DNA of 64,000 bases from an uncultured SAR86 cluster bacterium (GTDB lineage Bacteria > Pseudomonadota > Gammaproteobacteria > Magnimaribacterales > AG-339-G14), in contig CACJNS010000001.1 in assembly GCA_902594855.1 (NCBI GenBank), positions 561,335 through 625,334 on the forward strand. The letters run 5' to 3'. Within the stretch, counting starts at the first letter, position 1. Each line of letters opens with the position of its first letter. Of the stretch, positions 2,965 through 20,871 are shown piece by piece. The position numbers and the translations under genes are program-made. The notes under the pieces were generated by a model that was not told the DNA's origin, made no database searches, and was given only the letters and a program-made list of their open reading frames with translations.

Positions 2965-3465
2965 ATGAAAATGAAAAATGAATATCAAAAGTTCTTTAGT
3001 GCTGATTGCTTTACGCATCATATAACTTTATCTCCTTCACATCTAAACGAATATTCAATATTGCCTCTAATACGAAAAATAGAATTTAAATTAAATAAGA
3101 TTTTTCTAAATTCTAATTTTCCAAAATATGTGACTACAGATAAATTTAAATTTTTTATTTTTCCTGAAGACTCTGATAGACATTTACAACATTTTCATAT
3201 GCTTCTCTATTCTCCCTCAAAGAAAGAACGAGAAAGTAAAAGTAAAGATTATTGCATTGCATGTAAATTCATAGAAAAACCATTTTTTGAAACCTGTGAT
3301 TTTTGCACAGCAAGAGTTTTAAATGATTTGTTTGCTGAAGAAATTCCGAATGTAGATGTTCAAGTCAATATTACATCTGACTTTGACCATTACGATAATT
3401 TTTACGCAACAAAGAAACAAAGATTTGAATTAGATTATAAAGATAGTTATCTAGTGTGTTCATAA
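2965..3465 (+). CDS. Putative miniature HUH rolling-circle Rep-like protein (Rep_1/pC194-pUB110-like motif order) with CxxC...CxxC insert
   Basis: Ordered motifs: I FTHHITLS, II HLQHFHMLLY (HUH + hydrophobics), III NFYATKK (YxxK). The spacings of ~57 and ~70 aa are similar to pUB110 Rep, and PNVDVQVNI resembles its PNVKVQMI segment. CIAC-x13-CDFC lies between motifs II and III. Confidence 0.45.
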   Translation: MKMKNEYQKFFSADCFTHHITLSPSHLNEYSILPLIRKIEFKLNKIFLNSNFPKYVTTDKFKFFIFPEDSDRHLQHFHMLLYSPSKKERESKSKDYCIACKFIEKPFFETCDFCTARVLNDLFAEEIPNVDVQVNITSDFDHYDNFYATKKQRFELDYKDSYLVCS

Positions 3466-4015: not shown

Positions 4016-4768
4016 CTATAAATCAATATAGGCATCAAACATTTCTTTAAAGTCAGATGATTTGACTAATCTTATGCCTCCACCATGATTATGTTTTTTA
4101 CCAATATTTGTGCCTGAACGATATACACCCAGTCTGTTATCGTATCTTGCTTTACCTTCTTTGATTAACTTAATGCATTTTTCGAAATTAAATCCCATAA
4201 ATGCTTTGCCTTCTATGTATTTAAAATGTGTTCTACCATCAATTTTTTCTTCTTCTGCTTTCACAACAAATGTATTTTTAAGTTTTGAACTTGCAGTTCT
4301 TAATGAGTCAAAAGTCCAATAAACACTTGAATCTATTGGTTTTTCATTAAGGTCACAAAGTAATATTTTTAATTTATGTTCAGCATCATCAATCTGTATT
4401 TTCATTTTGTATTTGCCATATACTACTGACCATCTATGTGCATAAATTGATGTTCTGAAAACTTTGATATGAGGATACTCTTCATCACTTATGCCCCAGT
4501 TTTCCCTCATATATTCATCACCTTTTTCAGGAAAATCAGGTTTACAGGTGAAAAGACTTGCTGCAGATTTTGTATGTTGTCTTTGACTCTTACATTCCCA
4601 ACCTTCAAAGTCAGCATCTTTTAGATTATTTTCCTGAACACCTAGAATTGTTTCAAAAGTATTTCCAATTGCTCCATCGTTTTTTTCTGCAAATGGTTTG
4701 TCACTTTCAATGAAACCAAGATTTTTGATTCGTTGGAATTCTGATTTAACTCTATTTACATCTACCAC
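4016..4768 (-). CDS. Type II restriction endonuclease, MvaI/BcnI family
   Basis: Matches my recollection of R.MvaI: GAIGNTFETILG, catalytic DADFEGWECKS (D...ExK), SSVYWTFDSL and RLGVYRSGTNIGKKHNHGGGIRL. GTG start, directly downstream of the methyltransferase. Confidence 0.75.
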   Translation of the reverse strand: MVDVNRVKSEFQRIKNLGFIESDKPFAEKNDGAIGNTFETILGVQENNLKDADFEGWECKSQRQHTKSAASLFTCKPDFPEKGDEYMRENWGISDEEYPHIKVFRTSIYAHRWSVVYGKYKMKIQIDDAEHKLKILLCDLNEKPIDSSVYWTFDSLRTASSKLKNTFVVKAEEEKIDGRTHFKYIEGKAFMGFNFEKCIKLIKEGKARYDNRLGVYRSGTNIGKKHNHGGGIRLVKSSDFKEMFDAYIDL

Positions 4769-4802
4769 AAATAAAGCATGCCATATGCTTTATTATTTGT
4801 GG
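4765..4802 (-). promoter_or_regulatory. M-R intergenic hairpin that base-pairs the GTG start of the endonuclease gene
   Basis: The mRNA-sense sequence CCACAAAUAAUAAAGCAUAUGGCAUGCUUUAUUUGUGG folds into 15 bp with a 3-nt bulge and a 5-nt loop. The GUG at 4768-4766 lies in the basal stem, and no Shine-Dalgarno sequence precedes it. Confidence 0.55.
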
Positions 4803-4807
4803 AGTCA

Positions 4808-5557
4808 TTATTCAGTAAAAAGGTCTTCTGATTTCTTTAGTCTATCTTCTGAAATATCAATATATTTCTTACTTATCTCACTTCCTAGATATTTTCTCTT
4901 TAGTCTTTTTGCAACAACTGCTGTCGTTCCAGTTCCCATAAATGGGTCATAGACAACATCACCTTCTTCAGAGAAATTCTCTAAAATTTTTGCAACTAAT
5001 TCTTTTGGGAAAACTGCTCCATGATTTTCTCCCCCACGACTTCTTTCTCTTTTAATTTCCCATATATCATCAAGAGTTCCTCTTTCAAAACTTCCTCTTT
5101 TTCTATATTGCCTACTAATCGGATAATCTTTATCAAAAACAAGAATTAGTTCTGTTCTTCTATTAAGAACTTGTTTTTGTATAGAGGGTTGAGCATTTCC
5201 TTTATCCCATACAATAATATCTTTAAGATATTCAGAAAATTCACCTATCATCTTAAAAATTGACCTCTTGCTGCCTGTGACGATTTGAATGTTATAGAAA
5301 ATTAATTCACTTACTCTAATCAATTCCCTTAAGATCTCTGTATGAAGTTTGTTGTATTCATCAATCGGAAGATTATCATCAAACTCTGTGTATTTTGTGC
5401 TAATTTCTTTAACAATTTGTCGTGAACAATACTCTCCATTTCTTATTCTTAAATTCATATTGTAAGGTGGAGAAGTGATGACTAAATCAACAGAGTCATC
5501 TTTCATCTTCTTTAAAGTTGAAAGACAATCTTCATGATAAATTTTATTTAGTTTCAT
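4808..5557 (-). CDS. Beta-class N4-cytosine (or N6-adenine) DNA methyltransferase
   Basis: Motif IV DLVITSPPYNM lies N-terminal to motif I VVYDPFMGTGTTAVVA (beta permutation). SPPY rather than DPPY favours m4C, matching MvaI/BcnI-type systems. Confidence 0.85.
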   Translation of the reverse strand: MKLNKIYHEDCLSTLKKMKDDSVDLVITSPPYNMNLRIRNGEYCSRQIVKEISTKYTEFDDNLPIDEYNKLHTEILRELIRVSELIFYNIQIVTGSKRSIFKMIGEFSEYLKDIIVWDKGNAQPSIQKQVLNRRTELILVFDKDYPISRQYRKRGSFERGTLDDIWEIKRERSRGGENHGAVFPKELVAKILENFSEEGDVVYDPFMGTGTTAVVAKRLKRKYLGSEISKKYIDISEDRLKKSEDLFTE

Positions 5558-5582
5558 ATTTAAATTATATCCTCTTAATCAT

Positions 5583-6731
5583 TTATATAACTCGCAAGAA
5601 CTCTTTTAAATCAGTATTTAACTGACTTTTCGGAAAATAGAAGTCATCAATCATTTTCAGTGATGTGTCTGCTCTTCTTGCAATTTGAATATGACTAATT
5701 TTTGTATTCATAAGATTCATGATTATTGATGTATGTCTTAAAGAATATGCAGTGCAATTATTGCCATCATCATCTGTTCTCAAATCACATCTCTCAAGTA
5801 AAGTTCTAAATTGTGCAGTCATTACACGCATTGCATGTCTTCTGTTTTGATGCTCATTTAAAAATAAGAAATCAGATTTTTTCCAACCTTTATTTCTTTT
5901 CTTCATATCTCTAAAAATATAACTTCCAGTAGATAGAGTCTGAACAGACATCTGTTGATTTTTTCTATTAACTTTAAATTGTAGATATTCTGCTTTTGTA
6001 TCTTTTTCTTTTTTCTCTTCAATATCACCATAACGAAGAGAGTAAACTTCAGAGATAGTAGGTCTTAACATACTAGACATCATGAACACTATAAAATCAT
6101 GTAAATCATATGTAATCGTATATCTAGTGCCATTGTGCATCACGACACTTTCTCCAATGAGTTCTAACGACTTCTTTTGTAGTTTCTTATACGAATCTCT
6201 AGTAAAGAATCCTCTGCGTTCAGATTTGACTCCTCGAATTTTAGAAAATTTCACATAATTTTCTGCCATATCTAAAATTTGTCGAAGTAAAGAACGATGT
6301 TTATTGATTGTTGATTTTGCAAGTTGTCTTTCTTTGTGCAAGTTAGTGAAAAAATCTTCTGTATCTTCTCTAGTAATTGATTGAACTTCACGATTTTTGA
6401 AAAACTCTAAAATTCCATTTTTACGATTGAGTAGAGAAGTGACTTCTTTTTCTGCACTGATGCCACTTGCTGTAATTTTGCCTTTTGTTCTTTCTATGAT
6501 TTTGTTTGCAAAATGCTCGATTGTCTTATCTTTATCAAATATGAGTTTTTTGCTACCAGTCATCAAATCTTGCTGATATTCAAATGCTTTCTTTCTTGCT
6601 TCAGTTTGTGATGTTGTTTTTAGTGATTTGCGATGCTGTTTTCCATCTACATTGATACATACATACCAATTTTGACTGCGATTACGAGTGTAGATACTCA
6701 TGTAATCAAATAATTTAATTGTCTTGCTCAT
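5583..6731 (-). CDS. int: Tyrosine recombinase / phage-type integrase
   Basis: C-terminal catalytic signatures MLRPTISEVYSLRYGDI (box I Arg), AYSLRHTSI (HxxR) and MIDDFYF (Tyr). Adjacent to the tRNA-Phe attachment site. Confidence 0.9.
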   Translation of the reverse strand: MSKTIKLFDYMSIYTRNRSQNWYVCINVDGKQHRKSLKTTSQTEARKKAFEYQQDLMTGSKKLIFDKDKTIEHFANKIIERTKGKITASGISAEKEVTSLLNRKNGILEFFKNREVQSITREDTEDFFTNLHKERQLAKSTINKHRSLLRQILDMAENYVKFSKIRGVKSERRGFFTRDSYKKLQKKSLELIGESVVMHNGTRYTITYDLHDFIVFMMSSMLRPTISEVYSLRYGDIEEKKEKDTKAEYLQFKVNRKNQQMSVQTLSTGSYIFRDMKKRNKGWKKSDFLFLNEHQNRRHAMRVMTAQFRTLLERCDLRTDDDGNNCTAYSLRHTSIIMNLMNTKISHIQIARRADTSLKMIDDFYFPKSQLNTDLKEFLRVI

Positions 6732-6739
6732 TCAAACCC

Positions 6740-6811
6740 TTAACACACTTGAGATACAAGAATTAACACACAAATAATGTGTTAAAGTGTGTTAGTAGTT
6801 ATCATAACACA
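6740..6811. repeat. Right-end array of TGTGTTA(A/G)/TTAACACA motifs
   Basis: ttaacaca at 6740 and 6763, tgtgttaa at 6778, tgtgttag at 6788, ataacaca at 6804. The pair aatgtgttaaa + agtgtgttagt occurs at both island ends with different spacing. Confidence 0.6.
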
Positions 6812-6857
6812 TAAAATGATTAAAAATGTCTGAAAGTGTTGATTTTACTGCATTTGA

Positions 6858-6933
6858 TGGTGCCCAGAGGTAGAATCGAACTACCGACACAAGGATTTTC
6901 AGTCCTTTGCTCTACCAACTGAGCTATCTGGGC
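6858..6933 (-). tRNA. tRNA-Phe (anticodon GAA)
   Basis: The reverse complement reads GCCCAGATAGCTCAGTTGGTAGAGCAAAGGACTGAAAATCCTTGTGTCGGTAGTTCGATTCTACCTCTGGGCACCA. It forms a 7-bp acceptor stem, has a CTGAAAA anticodon loop and a TTCGATT T-loop, and encodes CCA. It is close to E. coli tRNA-Phe. Confidence 0.95.
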
Positions 6934-17412: not shown

Positions 17413-17820
17413 ATGGAATACTTCATTCAATTCGTAATTGAAAATTGGTACATCGAGATACCTCTTATTATATCTATTGCAGCTTTAATATTGTTTGAAA
17501 AATCAAAAAGAGCATCGAAAATTGAGCCTCAAGCTGCAACCATTATGATAAATAAACAAAAAGCTAGAGTTTTAGATGTCAGAAGTGCCATTGAATTTAG
17601 CAAAGGAACAATTCCCAATGCAGTTAACGTTAACAAAGATAACGCTTCTTGCATCAATGCTTTAAAAGGAGATTTAGATAACCCGGTAATATTTGTTTGT
17701 AATCAAGGCACTGATTCTTCAAAAATTGCATCCAGCCTAAAAAAAGATTTGAAAGAGGTTTATGTGATTAACGGAGGTATTAACGCATGGAAAAGCGAGG
17801 GCTTTCCTATTGTGAATTAG
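17413..17820 (+). CDS. Membrane-anchored single-domain rhodanese sulfurtransferase
   Basis: N-terminal TM helix. Rhodanese fold with the active-site loop VIFVCNQGTDSS. Confidence 0.65.
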   Translation: MEYFIQFVIENWYIEIPLIISIAALILFEKSKRASKIEPQAATIMINKQKARVLDVRSAIEFSKGTIPNAVNVNKDNASCINALKGDLDNPVIFVCNQGTDSSKIASSLKKDLKEVYVINGGINAWKSEGFPIVN

Positions 17821-18591
17821 TCAAATATCTAGCTCTTGTATTTTTCTAGCTAAGGTATTTCTTCCCCAGCCTAGCAGCTTAGCAGCCTCAGATTTATTTC
17901 CTCTAGTGGACTTTAAAGCCACATTAATCATTGTTCTTTCAAAAATTGGAGTAGCTACATTTAATAGATGATCTTCCCCTTTGGAAAGTTGTTTTTCTGC
18001 CCAGCTTTCAAGAATATCTTCCCAATTTTGCTCTTCTTTTTCAGTTTGAATAAATAGTTGTTTATGAAGGTCGCTCTCTTTTAAATCTTGTCCCGGTGAA
18101 AGAACAAACATTAACTTTCCAATAGCGTTAAAAAGGTCTTGCATAGCTTCTGATCTATCTACTGTTTTTTCTTTTTCAGGCAAAATCTCTTCAATTTGTT
18201 TATTCGAAACAGTCACTGATTTTTTTTCGCTAATCACTTTATCTATTTTTGATATGGCAGTATGAATATCGAAAGGTTTTGCTAAATAATCCCAGGCACC
18301 ATTATCAAAAGCTTCAACAGTTGTTTCTAGGTCAGAAAAAGCAGTCATCATTATGATGGGTATATTTGGATGTTCATTTTTAAAAGTATCAAGAAGATCC
18401 ATCCCATCCCTGCCTGGCATACGCATATCTGTGAGAACTATATTAGGCGATTCAATATCTAATTGATTAACCACTTCATTTCCGTCTTCAAAAGTAGAAA
18501 CTTCGAAACCTGCTTCAGATAATCCTTTTTCTAGAACCCACCTTATGGATTCATCATCATCAGCAACCCATATTTTTTTATCTTGCCTCAT
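17821..18591 (-). CDS. ntrC: NtrC-like response regulator lacking the sigma54 AAA+ central domain (REC + Fis-type HTH only)
   Basis: REC: VADDDESIRWVL, VLTDMRMPG, YLAKPFD. C-terminus: EAAKLLGWGRNTLARKIQEL. Only a remnant of the central-domain start remains (DRSEAMQDLFNAIGKL). There is no Walker A or GAFTGA motif. 256 aa. Confidence 0.8.
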   Translation of the reverse strand: MRQDKKIWVADDDESIRWVLEKGLSEAGFEVSTFEDGNEVVNQLDIESPNIVLTDMRMPGRDGMDLLDTFKNEHPNIPIIMMTAFSDLETTVEAFDNGAWDYLAKPFDIHTAISKIDKVISEKKSVTVSNKQIEEILPEKEKTVDRSEAMQDLFNAIGKLMFVLSPGQDLKESDLHKQLFIQTEKEEQNWEDILESWAEKQLSKGEDHLLNVATPIFERTMINVALKSTRGNKSEAAKLLGWGRNTLARKIQELDI

Positions 18592-19691
18592 GCTGATTCA
18601 TAATTTTCATTTTTAGATGCTTCCTTTGCATCTTCATCTTCAATTTTTAAAGGCAAATAGATTGAGAACTTTGTGCCGGAAGAAGAACTCTCACATTCGA
18701 TTGCTCCGCCATGTTGACTGACTATTCCTTGAGCAATTGAGAGCCCCAAACCAGACTTAATTTCTTTACTTGAAACAAGAGGGAAAAATATTGAGTCAAT
18801 TATTTCTTCTGGAATACCAGGACCATTATCAATAAAGGATATCTCACAAGTGGTTTTGTGGAATGTCCTGTTGATGAAAGTTCCAAAATGTATTCTGGTT
18901 TTAAGAGAAATTTTATTTTCTCGATCGGTCGATCTCATGGCATCAACTGAATTATTTGCCAAGTTGTATAGGACCTGAGTCATAAGTGATGAATCAATAT
19001 TCAATTCAGGTAAAGTAGGGTCATAATCTTTAGTTATCTCTATTTTATCTCTAGATATACTTCCTAGATATTCTGGAATAGTTTCAAGAATTGTATGAAT
19101 GTTCACATCTTCAGGTTGGATTTCAAACTGTCTATCTAGAATTTTCGTAACCAAATCACTCAATCTTTCAGTCTCTTTTAATATGATTCTCGTGTATTCC
19201 TTAAGATCATCATTTTTTAATTTTGGCTCAAGAAGTTGAGTAGCACCTTTAATGCCACTAAGAGGATTTCTTATTTCGTGCGCTAAGCCCTTTGAAAAAG
19301 TAGCTGTGACAGTCGAAATAGTTTGTCTTTTCATCCTATTCAATTCCTTTGTTTGGTTAGCATCGTAAAATTCATAAAGAAGATATTTTTTTGAATCTAT
19401 CTCGAAGAAATTAATTTCATAGGTGCAAACTTTTTCAAGACCTCCTTTTAAATAAATTTTTCGTCTGGACTTCTCAAGAGAATCTTTCTCAGCAAGAAGT
19501 CTTTTGAGTTCAAACATATTGCTAGGACTTTCAGAAAATATATTTTCAATACCTTTGCCTTCACTATTTTTTGAGTCAAATAATAAAAAAGCTTCTGCTT
19601 CATTGCTTGCAAAAACAAAATTTAAGTTTTCATCAACAACCAAAACTTTGGAAGAAATGTTTTCCATTGTTTTTTTCAGAAGCTTCTTCAT
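18588..19691 (-). CDS. ntrB: Nitrogen regulation sensor histidine kinase NtrB-like
   Basis: PAS-like N-terminus, H-box GLAHEIRNPLSGIKG, and ATPase N/G boxes (NLANNSVDA, GLGLSIAQ). Confidence 0.8.
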   Translation of the reverse strand: MKKLLKKTMENISSKVLVVDENLNFVFASNEAEAFLLFDSKNSEGKGIENIFSESPSNMFELKRLLAEKDSLEKSRRKIYLKGGLEKVCTYEINFFEIDSKKYLLYEFYDANQTKELNRMKRQTISTVTATFSKGLAHEIRNPLSGIKGATQLLEPKLKNDDLKEYTRIILKETERLSDLVTKILDRQFEIQPEDVNIHTILETIPEYLGSISRDKIEITKDYDPTLPELNIDSSLMTQVLYNLANNSVDAMRSTDRENKISLKTRIHFGTFINRTFHKTTCEISFIDNGPGIPEEIIDSIFFPLVSSKEIKSGLGLSIAQGIVSQHGGAIECESSSSGTKFSIYLPLKIEDEDAKEASKNENYESA

Positions 19692-19708: not shown

Positions 19709-19775
19709 AAAACTTTGAAGTTAATCGCAGACTAAAATGTTTAGATTCTAAATCTTTGATTAACTTCAAAGTTTT
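19709..19775 (-). terminator. 18-bp perfect inverted repeat between glnII and ntrB (probable terminator/attenuator)
   Basis: aaaactttgaagttaatc (19709-19726) pairs with gattaacttcaaagtttt (19758-19775). The 31-nt loop holds the nested palindrome tttaga-t-tctaaa (19740-19752). On the transcribed strand the 3' arm ends in UUUU and is followed by AAUUU. Confidence 0.45.
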
Positions 19776-19794: not shown

Positions 19795-20775
19795 TTATTT
19801 CGTTAACGTGCCAACGATATGAGAAAGTATTTTGTATGGATCGGCATTCGAGGCAGGTCTTCTGTCCTCAAGGTATCCATTCCAATTATGTTCAACTGTG
19901 TAAACAGGTATACGTATACTTGCTCCTCTGTCACTGACCCCATATGAGAATTTCTCAATGCTTTGAGTTTCGTGAAGACCAGTTAGTCTCATATCATTAT
20001 CTGATCCATACGCAGCAATACCGTCCTCATGGACTTCGCCTAGTTTTTCACACATTGATTTAAATAAATCCTCTGAACCACCAGTTCGCATAGCCTCATT
20101 GGAAAAGTTTGTGTGCATTCCAGATCCGTTCCAATCCCCAGTTTTAGGTTTTGGATGGATATTTACACCAACACCATACTCTTCAGCTGTTTTGAAGAGA
20201 AGATATCTACTAACCCATAAATCATCAGCTGCTTTAATTCCTTTACCAAAGCATTGATATTCCCATTGACCCAAAGCAACTTCTGCATTTGTTCCTGTTA
20301 GTGTTATCCCTATGTCTAAGCAAGCTTGCAAATGTGCATCTGATATTTCTCTTCCAACTACGTTAGCAGCACCTACTCCGCAATAAAATTCTCCTTGCGC
20401 TCTAGGTTCGCCATCTTCCCATCCTAAAGGTTCACCAGTAGTAGGGTCGGTGAAGAAAAACTCTTGCTCAAATCCAAACCACCATTCATCAGAAACAACC
20501 TCTGCAGCTGCAGCCCTGTTATTGGATGAATGCGTAGTATGATCTGCTGATTGAACTTGTGTCATAACTAAATCGTGCCCATTTGGGTTTGAATAAGTTT
20601 GCACAGGTAATAAAAGACAATCAGAACTTCCACCTTCAGCTTGTTGAGTCGAGGACCCATCAAAAGACCAATCTGGAGGGGAAGCATCTTCTGTTGCTTT
20701 CACTTTACTTCTCATAAAAGGCTCAGGCTCGTAGCCGTCTAGCCAAATATATTCATATGTTTTCATGTCTGACAT
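19795..20775 (-). CDS. glnII: Glutamine synthetase type II (eukaryote-like GSII)
   Basis: 326 aa. EYIWLDG, FDGSSTQQAEG, NAEVALGQWEYQ, DWNGSGMHTNFS and YLEDRRPASNADPY are collinear with rhizobial GlnII as I recall it. Confidence 0.9.
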   Translation of the reverse strand: MSDMKTYEYIWLDGYEPEPFMRSKVKATEDASPPDWSFDGSSTQQAEGGSSDCLLLPVQTYSNPNGHDLVMTQVQSADHTTHSSNNRAAAAEVVSDEWWFGFEQEFFFTDPTTGEPLGWEDGEPRAQGEFYCGVGAANVVGREISDAHLQACLDIGITLTGTNAEVALGQWEYQCFGKGIKAADDLWVSRYLLFKTAEEYGVGVNIHPKPKTGDWNGSGMHTNFSNEAMRTGGSEDLFKSMCEKLGEVHEDGIAAYGSDNDMRLTGLHETQSIEKFSYGVSDRGASIRIPVYTVEHNWNGYLEDRRPASNADPYKILSHIVGTLTK

Positions 20776-20871
20776 TTTTAACTCCTTAATGTTTAACGGA
20801 ACTAAATTATCAGAACCAGTGATTATTAATAGTGCAATAATGTATCAATTTAATACATATTTTGCTTTATT

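Follow-up and report, generated by a model that had tools for sequence, protein, structure and literature searches.

A SAR86 NtrC ortholog without its sigma-54-activating ATPase core

NtrC is the textbook activator of sigma-54 RNA polymerase, and bacterial enhancer-binding proteins of its kind need an AAA+ ring and a GAFTGA loop to remodel the sigma-54 holoenzyme. What can such a regulator do once the AAA+ domain is gone? The question is raised by a 64-kb stretch of DNA (the window) from SAR86, a group that ranks among the most abundant heterotrophs of the ocean, in which an ntrC gene situated beside ntrB and the glutamine synthetase gene glnII encodes a protein of 256 amino acids (ntrC-short; positions 17821-18591, minus strand, stop codon 17821-17823). 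Gene positions are those of the window unless a locus with an L number is named. The evidence collected here makes it probable that the product is an NtrC ortholog that has been stripped of its sigma-54-activating core and selected as a two-domain, phosphorylation-controlled regulator working on sigma-70 RNA polymerase.

The short NtrC is confirmed to consist of a receiver and an NtrC/Fis-type DNA-binding domain, with the AAA+ domain absent. Pfam recognizes Response_reg (PF00072; residues 7-115, E = 6e-29) and HTH_8 (PF02954; residues 217-253, E = 3e-14), and no match to Sigma54_activat or AAA+ (PF00158, PF14532) appears at a threshold of E <= 1. The receiver (residues 1-124; 18220-18591, minus strand) matches that of Salmonella NtrC (PDB 1DC7; 133 bits, ~58% identity), and the phospho-acceptor pocket is in place, comprising D11-D13, the phospho-acceptor D55, T83 and K105. 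The dimerization and helix-turn-helix domain (residues 188-256; 17824-18030, minus strand) matches the DNA-binding domain of NtrC (PDB 1NTC) over residues 188-255. Both the phospho-acceptor residues and the recognition helix (SEAAKLLGWGRNTLARK) are unaltered. The highest-scoring NCBIfam models are the NtrC (NR-I) equivalogs TIGR01818 and NF008176 (233.8 and 234.5 bits, below their curated cut-offs of 558.6 and 620), matched in two pieces that cover model positions 2-157 and then the C-terminus; AtoC (109 bits), NtrX (90 bits) and ActR/PrrA (67 bits) follow at a distance. In an AlphaFold2 model built on a 60-sequence alignment (full-length predicted template modelling score 0.51), the receiver and the Fis-like domain are confident, with predicted local distance difference test (pLDDT) values of ~90 and ~92, respectively. 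The ~60-residue segment between them is of low confidence and disordered except for a single predicted helix, residues 146-163, itself of low confidence, which corresponds to a conserved stub of the former central domain. The reading frame, NtrC-type receiver and C-terminal helix-turn-helix proposed in an initial annotation made from the sequence are thus borne out by Pfam, NCBIfam and PDB matches, and the cryptic AAA+ core that would have spoken against it turned up neither in the Pfam search nor in the model.

How the core was lost can be read from its relatives. The nearest non-identical proteins are SAR86 NtrCs of 400-450 amino acids with complete AAA+ domains and 60-69% local identity, and alignment with these full-length forms opens a single gap of exactly 209 residues at L160/M161 (...MQDLFNAIGKL / MFVLSPGQDL...). 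When mapped onto Aquifex NtrC1, the gap takes out GESGTGKE, GAFTGA, LFLDE, the arginine fingers and the sensor-II helix with GNVLQL. Of the central domain, only the first helix (DRSEAMQDLFNAIGKL) and the last lid strand (MFVLSPGQDLKESDL) are left. The former closes the linker and N-terminal stub (residues 125-160; 18112-18219, minus strand), which carries the deletion junction at its 3' end, and the latter opens the C-terminal stub (residues 161-187; 18031-18111, minus strand), which aligns with 'LTVLSSAQEI..SDL' of full-length relatives. The sum of 256 and 209 residues, 465, is an ordinary NtrC length. The alignment points to a clean, in-frame excision of 209 codons in a single event, as the initial annotation had proposed in preference to a frameshift: the frame is intact and the gene is kept by selection. 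Its statement that Walker A, GAFTGA and the rest of the ATPase are missing also stands, with the loss slightly smaller than the ~240 residues it had estimated.

Two features of these alignments deserve mention in their own right. All full-length SAR86 NtrCs (P0005 and relatives; L017 324-1670) have GNVLQLQN in the place of GNVRELKN of Aquifex NtrC1, so that the sensor-II arginine is a leucine, with both Walker motifs, A and B, as well as GAFTGA intact; the substitution could mark the onset of a change in how the ATPase works within the SAR86 clade. The short clade differs from the full-length SAR86 NtrCs by 34 fixed positions, among them H85F (codon 18337-18339) at the T+2 position beside the conserved Thr83. 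The T+2 position of receivers tunes the lifetime of the phosphoryl group.

Is the short gene a genuine NtrC, and is it in use? In a scan covering one genome per species (GTDB species representatives), the survey of relatives that the initial annotation had suggested, the 256-residue form was found in 11 SAR86 species-level genomes at 92-99% identity. Assemblies with the short gene include GCA_902563235.1, GCA_902620865.1, GCA_902570595.1, the GORG single-amplified genomes AG-908-C20, AG-337-I17 and AG-909-C16, and ENA ERZ28548080 (kelso_4__contig_6071, 1.14 Mb), the sister genome being ERZ28548062 (boult_4__contig_26632, 1.17 Mb). The exact window protein is present in three GORG single-cell assemblies, and its 90% identity cluster holds 484 members; given this spread across species and the size of the cluster, the gene is no assembly artefact. 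Sister loci with matching gene order (L017, and L018 on a 1.17-Mb contig) carry a full-length, GAFTGA-bearing ntrC, and short-form loci with the same synteny (L019 and L148-L150) include one on a 1.14-Mb contig. The common order is UPF0227-glnII-ntrB-ntrC-(amine oxidase)-rhodanese-His_Phos_1-hisF, with the amine oxidase confined to the sister loci. Short and full-length SAR86 NtrCs share 73-75% identity in the receiver and ~69% in the DNA-binding domain. Because it occupies the same glnII-ntrB-ntrC locus as the full-length forms, the short gene is an ortholog, neither a paralog nor a foreign REC-Fis regulator, and is a true NtrC derived in situ. The gene measures 771 nt in all 12 copies read. 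Among these orthologs, the pairwise ratio of nonsynonymous to synonymous substitution rates (dN/dS) ranges from 0.022 to 0.093 around a median of 0.037, and dS reaches 1.6-1.7; by part, the ratio is 0.026 in the receiver, 0.057 in the linker and stubs, 0.039 in the C-terminus and 0.022 in the leftover stub at residues 140-168. Such low ratios at such high dS indicate that the deletion is old and that strong purifying selection acts on the product. Judged by these substitution patterns, the gene is functional and no pseudogene, and the neutral evolution that the initial annotation had named as telling against its reading is not observed.

From what kind of promoter is the neighbouring glnII then read? 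Neither glnII nor ntrB was found to have a -24/-12 element (GG-N10-GC) upstream, and across the window TGGCAC-N5-TTGCW is matched no more often than by chance (21 found, 22 expected). The initial annotation had noticed this absence upstream of glnII and used it as an argument for sigma-54-independent control. The observation holds but is not diagnostic, given that a -24/-12 element was not found at glnII in the GAFTGA-bearing sister L018 either; since this sister has the same glnII promoter, the missing element is no consequence of the deletion. In 17 SAR86 loci including the sister, TGCACTA stands exactly 24 nt upstream of TGnTAnnnT (a TGCACTA-N17-TGnTA geometry), and the sequence between the two diverges. 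In the window, the first element is contained in the NtrC-half-site-like motif TTGCACTA (20830-20837, minus strand; predicted position about -40 to -33), conserved in the 17 orthologous promoters. The second is TGATAATTT (20804-20812, minus strand), a putative extended -10 of a sigma-70-type promoter, which across loci lies ~37-47 nt before the glnII start codon. The predicted promoter has no -35 hexamer, and the half-site sits over the -35 position. TGCACTA resembles the enteric NtrC half-site TGCACCA. On this comparison, a sigma-70-type promoter appears to have read glnII already before the deletion. The geometry is common to the full-length sister, and an AAA+-independent job of NtrC would therefore be older than the loss of the ATPase.

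The loss is also found outside SAR86. Proteins of ~210-234 residues with a receiver and HTH_8, ~39% identical to the short NtrC of the window, occur in a second, unrelated gammaproteobacterial lineage (G+C content 43-47%; one contig of 2.57 Mb), within the gene order thiI-tusA-glnA(GSI)-ntrB-ntrC. Their best NCBIfam scores are again to NtrC (187-230 bits, vs 70-84 for NtrX and 58-68 for ActR/PrrA). The lineage contains short genes coding for a receiver and HTH_8 alone, with products of 217-234 residues (L140 6001-6654; L141 2140-2793; L144 6001-6705), and syntenic genes for 440-residue proteins with a degenerate AAA+ domain devoid of GAFTGA and Walker B (L142 4405-5727; L143 5693-7015). Both forms have in common a receiver insertion that SAR86 lacks, and the deletion borders differ from those in SAR86 in that no stubs are left; this second loss of the ATPase is therefore independent. 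The family counts 2,605 proteins at E <= 1e-20, of which the best 120 all have the short architecture; a census of 50% identity representatives returned mostly multi-receiver proteins, so that the number of short NtrC-like clusters it gives is only rough. Upstream of glnA, in both kinds of member, a perfect NtrC dyad GCAC-N7-GTGC has its centre at about -77 to -89 relative to a promoter of the form TTGG(C/T)(A/C)-N16-TA(C/A)AAT (e.g. TTGGCA-N16-TACAAT), and TGCACTA of SAR86 corresponds to one half of the dyad GCACTA-N3-TAGTGC found in this lineage. No GG-N10-GC was found upstream of glnA in members with a degenerate AAA+ domain or in those with none. The order of events in this lineage appears to have been use of sigma-70 promoters, then decay of the ATPase, then its excision.

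What does the short NtrC do in place of activating sigma-54? Lacking an AAA+ ring and GAFTGA, it cannot itself activate sigma-54 polymerase, and its own action is therefore sigma-54-independent. To this extent the initial annotation, which proposed sigma-54-independent nitrogen control by a remodelled NtrC, is upheld, its argument from the glnII promoter falling away as described above; for the organism as a whole, we infer nitrogen control of the same kind. NtrB would still phosphorylate D55, and phosphorylation would govern how the C-terminal Fis-like domain dimerizes or binds cooperatively to TGCAC-type sites; the protein would then need no ATP to act directly on sigma-70 RNA polymerase. 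At glnII, the most likely mode would be activation as by PhoB, with the binding site taking the place of the -35 element. Activation is favoured by an extended -10 with no -35 hexamer, by the good sense of inducing a glutamine synthetase under nitrogen limitation, and by the upstream position of the dyad in the second lineage. The ATPase was probably shed once sigma-54-dependent targets had been lost in genome streamlining.

Several points weigh against this account of a sigma-70-directed regulator. Across the window, TTGCACTA is not enriched (2 found, 2.25 expected), nor is the dyad GCAC-N7-GTGC, and in SAR86 only one half of the canonical NtrC dyad is recognizable. The promoter elements and the NtrC half-site are predicted from conservation only, and the direction of control at glnII could be activation or repression. 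In the structural model, the pLDDT of the linker is below 50, and the conserved stub helix has no explained role. Elsewhere in the genome, a second ntrC or an ATPase acting in trans could in principle be encoded.

Of the alternatives, the one that survives best is that the short NtrC is purely a repressor, which occludes sigma-70 promoters and, once phosphorylated, would silence glnII by binding across its -35 region. DNA binding alone suffices for repression, TGCACTA lies in the predicted -39 to -33 region and would overlap polymerase binding, and its identical placement in the full-length sister is consistent with a site that never needed the ATPase. Enteric NtrC itself occludes the sigma-70 promoters glnAp1 and glnLp independently of its AAA+ domain. 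However, silencing the neighbouring glutamine synthetase under nitrogen limitation makes little sense unless a second one exists; the glnII promoter has no -35 hexamer at the right spacing, a trait of activator-dependent promoters; and the dyad of the second lineage, at ~-77, lies beyond the polymerase footprint. We regard pure repression as rather unlikely, though deserving of attention.

The possibility of an ATPase acting in trans leads to a second alternative, in which the short NtrC would tether, through its stub helix, a separate AAA+ activator that lacks a DNA-binding domain. Enhancer-binding proteins without a DNA-binding domain do occur in other bacteria, and the stub of the old N-terminal AAA+ helix, to which no function has been assigned, is under the very strong selection noted above (dN/dS 0.02). 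Against such a split system, no RpoN box, GAFTGA or enhancer-binding-protein Walker A motif was found in any frame of the 64-kb window, and its annotated genes, all housekeeping or island genes, include none for an AAA+ or sigma-54 protein; nor is there a -24/-12 promoter near the locus. Among the best 120 NtrC-like matches, none with an AAA+ domain lies on the 1.14-Mb contig of the short-NtrC lineage, which is weak evidence. For rpoN, an indirect route was taken, in which an AT-biased DNA pattern of the RpoN box was run against metagenome contigs, yielding at least 120 loci; alpha-type and gamma-type RpoNs were told apart by their N- and C-termini, and one low-GC gamma-type locus, L077, served as a protein probe. 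Among the 120 matches listed for this probe, none falls on the 1,141,543-bp contig with the short NtrC, and none on the 1,166,706-bp contig with a full-length NtrC that served as positive control, so that this listing does not bear on the presence of rpoN in the short-NtrC lineage. Genes of the rpoN neighbourhood were found neither in the window nor in the SAR86 loci. We know of no precedent for a partnership of this kind, and a split enhancer-binding system is very improbable.

The rpoN search also brought to light sigma-54 genes of related small, low-GC marine gammaproteobacterial genomes (L077 1950-3314; L145-L147 10001-11362). Here rpoN follows lptB, as is usual, but is followed by mgtE instead of hpf-ptsN, within a block (hisD-aroG-hisG-murA-mlaC-MMPL-kdsD-lptCAB-rpoN-mgtE-dcd-mrp-metG) that is kept in loci whose RpoNs share 65% identity. 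These loci differ in composition from the lineage of the window, and tetranucleotide signatures gave no lineage assignment.

That the gene is a functionless, neutrally evolving leftover, as the missing catalytic module and the readiness of streamlined genomes to drop regulators might suggest, is scarcely credible and is counted as refuted, given dN/dS of 0.02-0.09 with dS near saturation, an intact frame of identical length in 12 genomes, a partner kinase that is retained and coupled, and a ~1.1-Mb genome with zero-base spacers that sheds useless DNA fast. Equally remote is horizontal acquisition of a REC-Fis family member, either a beta-type NtrX or ActR/PrrA/RegA, whose two-domain architecture the short protein matches (Pfam; PMC13001219), considering that NCBIfam scores NtrC at 234 bits vs 90 for NtrX and 67 for ActR/PrrA, that the partner kinase is a cytoplasmic NtrB type and not a membrane NtrY, and that the closest relatives are full-length SAR86 NtrCs at the same locus, with AAA+ remnants preserved at both ends of the junction.

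How does a sigma-70-directed short NtrC compare with systems already described? With enteric NtrC (GlnG, NR-I) it shares the receiver pocket, the 1NTC-type Fis-like domain, an adjacent NtrB, linkage to a glutamine synthetase and a TGCAC half-site, but it differs in having no AAA+ domain (Walker A and B, GAFTGA, arginine fingers and sensor II); with the ATPase wholly absent, there can be no ATP hydrolysis, hexamer ring or sigma-54 contact in the short form. Precedents for NtrC-family proteins at sigma-70 promoters exist (bioRxiv 10.1101/2023.06.06.543975; PMC13001219). NtrB-coupled NtrCs of Rhodobacter capsulatus and Caulobacter crescentus that have no GAFTGA control nitrogen-assimilation genes at sigma-70 promoters (bioRxiv 10.1101/2023.06.06.543975, which cites Bowman & Kranz 1998). 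Both retain the AAA+ domain and still depend on it, Rhodobacter NtrC through the binding of ATP and Caulobacter NtrC through the Walker motifs. These two NtrCs lack loop L1 only, whereas the short SAR86 NtrC lacks the whole domain; it is the 440-residue NtrCs of the second lineage (P0104) that resemble such an intermediate state.

Two-domain regulators of other ancestry invite a similar comparison. Beta-proteobacterial NtrX (Herbaspirillum NtrX, Bordetella PlrR) is without the AAA+ domain of its alpha-proteobacterial orthologs (PMC13001219) and has reached the same outcome, a receiver with a Fis-type helix-turn-helix. It is, however, a different paralog with a membrane NtrY/PlrS partner, an rsmB-plrP neighbourhood and other regulons, the distinction being drawn by hidden Markov model score and by description; on both counts, kinase type and the scores given above (90 vs 234 bits), the short SAR86 protein is not an NtrX. 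ActR/PrrA/RegA regulators likewise combine a receiver with HTH_8 and bind sigma-70 promoters under control of phosphorylation, but they are ~180 residues long, carry no AAA+ remnants and pair with RegB-type kinases. The ActR/PrrA model NF033791 matches the short NtrC at 66.7 bits over the receiver only, compared with a cut-off of 250.

Taken together with the intermediates, these comparisons allow a fuller, stepwise account, which we put forward tentatively. In it, use of sigma-70 promoters, at first at some of them, would have come before GAFTGA was lost and the ATPase decayed, and complete excision would have come last, along a recurrent route completed independently in at least two large groups of uncultured Gammaproteobacteria from marine or environmental sources; the SAR86 sigma-54 system would perhaps have been lost, and helix 146-163 would have been co-opted as a new surface for oligomerization or polymerase contact.

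The surroundings of the gene are compact. On its upstream side lies ntrB (18588-19691, minus strand), coding for a cytoplasmic PAS-HisKA-HATPase kinase recognized by Pfam and by the NCBIfam NR(II) model (234 bits, cut-off 240); its stop codon overlaps the ntrC start codon as ATGA, so that the two genes are translationally coupled. On the other side, a convergent rhodanese gene (17413-17820, plus strand) ends at the ntrC stop codon with a spacer of 0 nt. The gapless flanking of ntrC described in the initial annotation is accurate on both sides. Further upstream stands glnII (19795-20775, minus strand), a type II glutamine synthetase of 326 amino acids with Pfam Gln-synt_N/C domains, for which GlnII is the best NCBIfam match (354 bits, cut-off 500). 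Between glnII and ntrB, a hairpin with 16-bp arms and, after it, a U-rich tract (19711-19773, minus strand; -28.4 kcal/mol, z = -6.4) has the look of a terminator or attenuator, and it is kept as a structure of different sequence in other subclades and the sister (L010-L012, L018). Its retention points to a conserved terminator or attenuator that parts glnII from ntrBC, reminiscent of the terminator held in the enteric glnA-glnL spacer.

Comparison of the window with L018 gives identities of ~45% for NtrB (L018 9070-9993), ~88% for GlnII and ~66% for the NtrC receiver, which against other full-length relatives reaches 73-75%. NtrB appears to have diverged much faster than GlnII, possibly by co-evolution with the remodelled NtrC. 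In the sister loci, a copper amine oxidase gene (647 amino acids; L017 1667-3610; L018 11417-13346) stands between ntrC and the rhodanese gene, co-directional with the latter. It is absent from every genome with a short NtrC, where the ntrC and rhodanese stops abut (window 17820/17821). One may speculate that the old sigma-54 function had this nitrogen-scavenging gene among its targets before the gene was lost. Elsewhere in the window, a tRNA-Phe gene (6858-6933, minus strand) adjoins an integrase-like gene (5583-6731), accompanied by genes for an N4/N6 DNA methyltransferase (4808-5557) and an MvaI/BcnI-family restriction endonuclease (4016-4768). This region (4016-6933; G+C content 0.29-0.30) looks like a small tRNA-targeted island with a restriction-modification system, and a 166-residue open reading frame beside it (2965-3465) has no Pfam match.

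No literature was found on an NtrB-coupled, gln-linked NtrC with an excised ATPase, or on sigma-54 or rpoN in SAR86, in a search whose coverage excluded most subscription journals. No new principle is involved. In very abundant bacteria, a textbook regulator has been remodelled cleanly, long ago and repeatedly, and annotation has so far missed it. Current annotation describes the short forms as 'response regulator' only or, misleadingly, as 'GlnG'. Together, the SAR86 and second-lineage variants form a natural series from an enhancer-binding protein to a conventional activator or repressor, and the same series can show which functions of NtrC never required ATP. Reconstructions of SAR86 nitrogen metabolism that are built on sigma-54/NtrC logic would be wrong for the subclade with the short NtrC.

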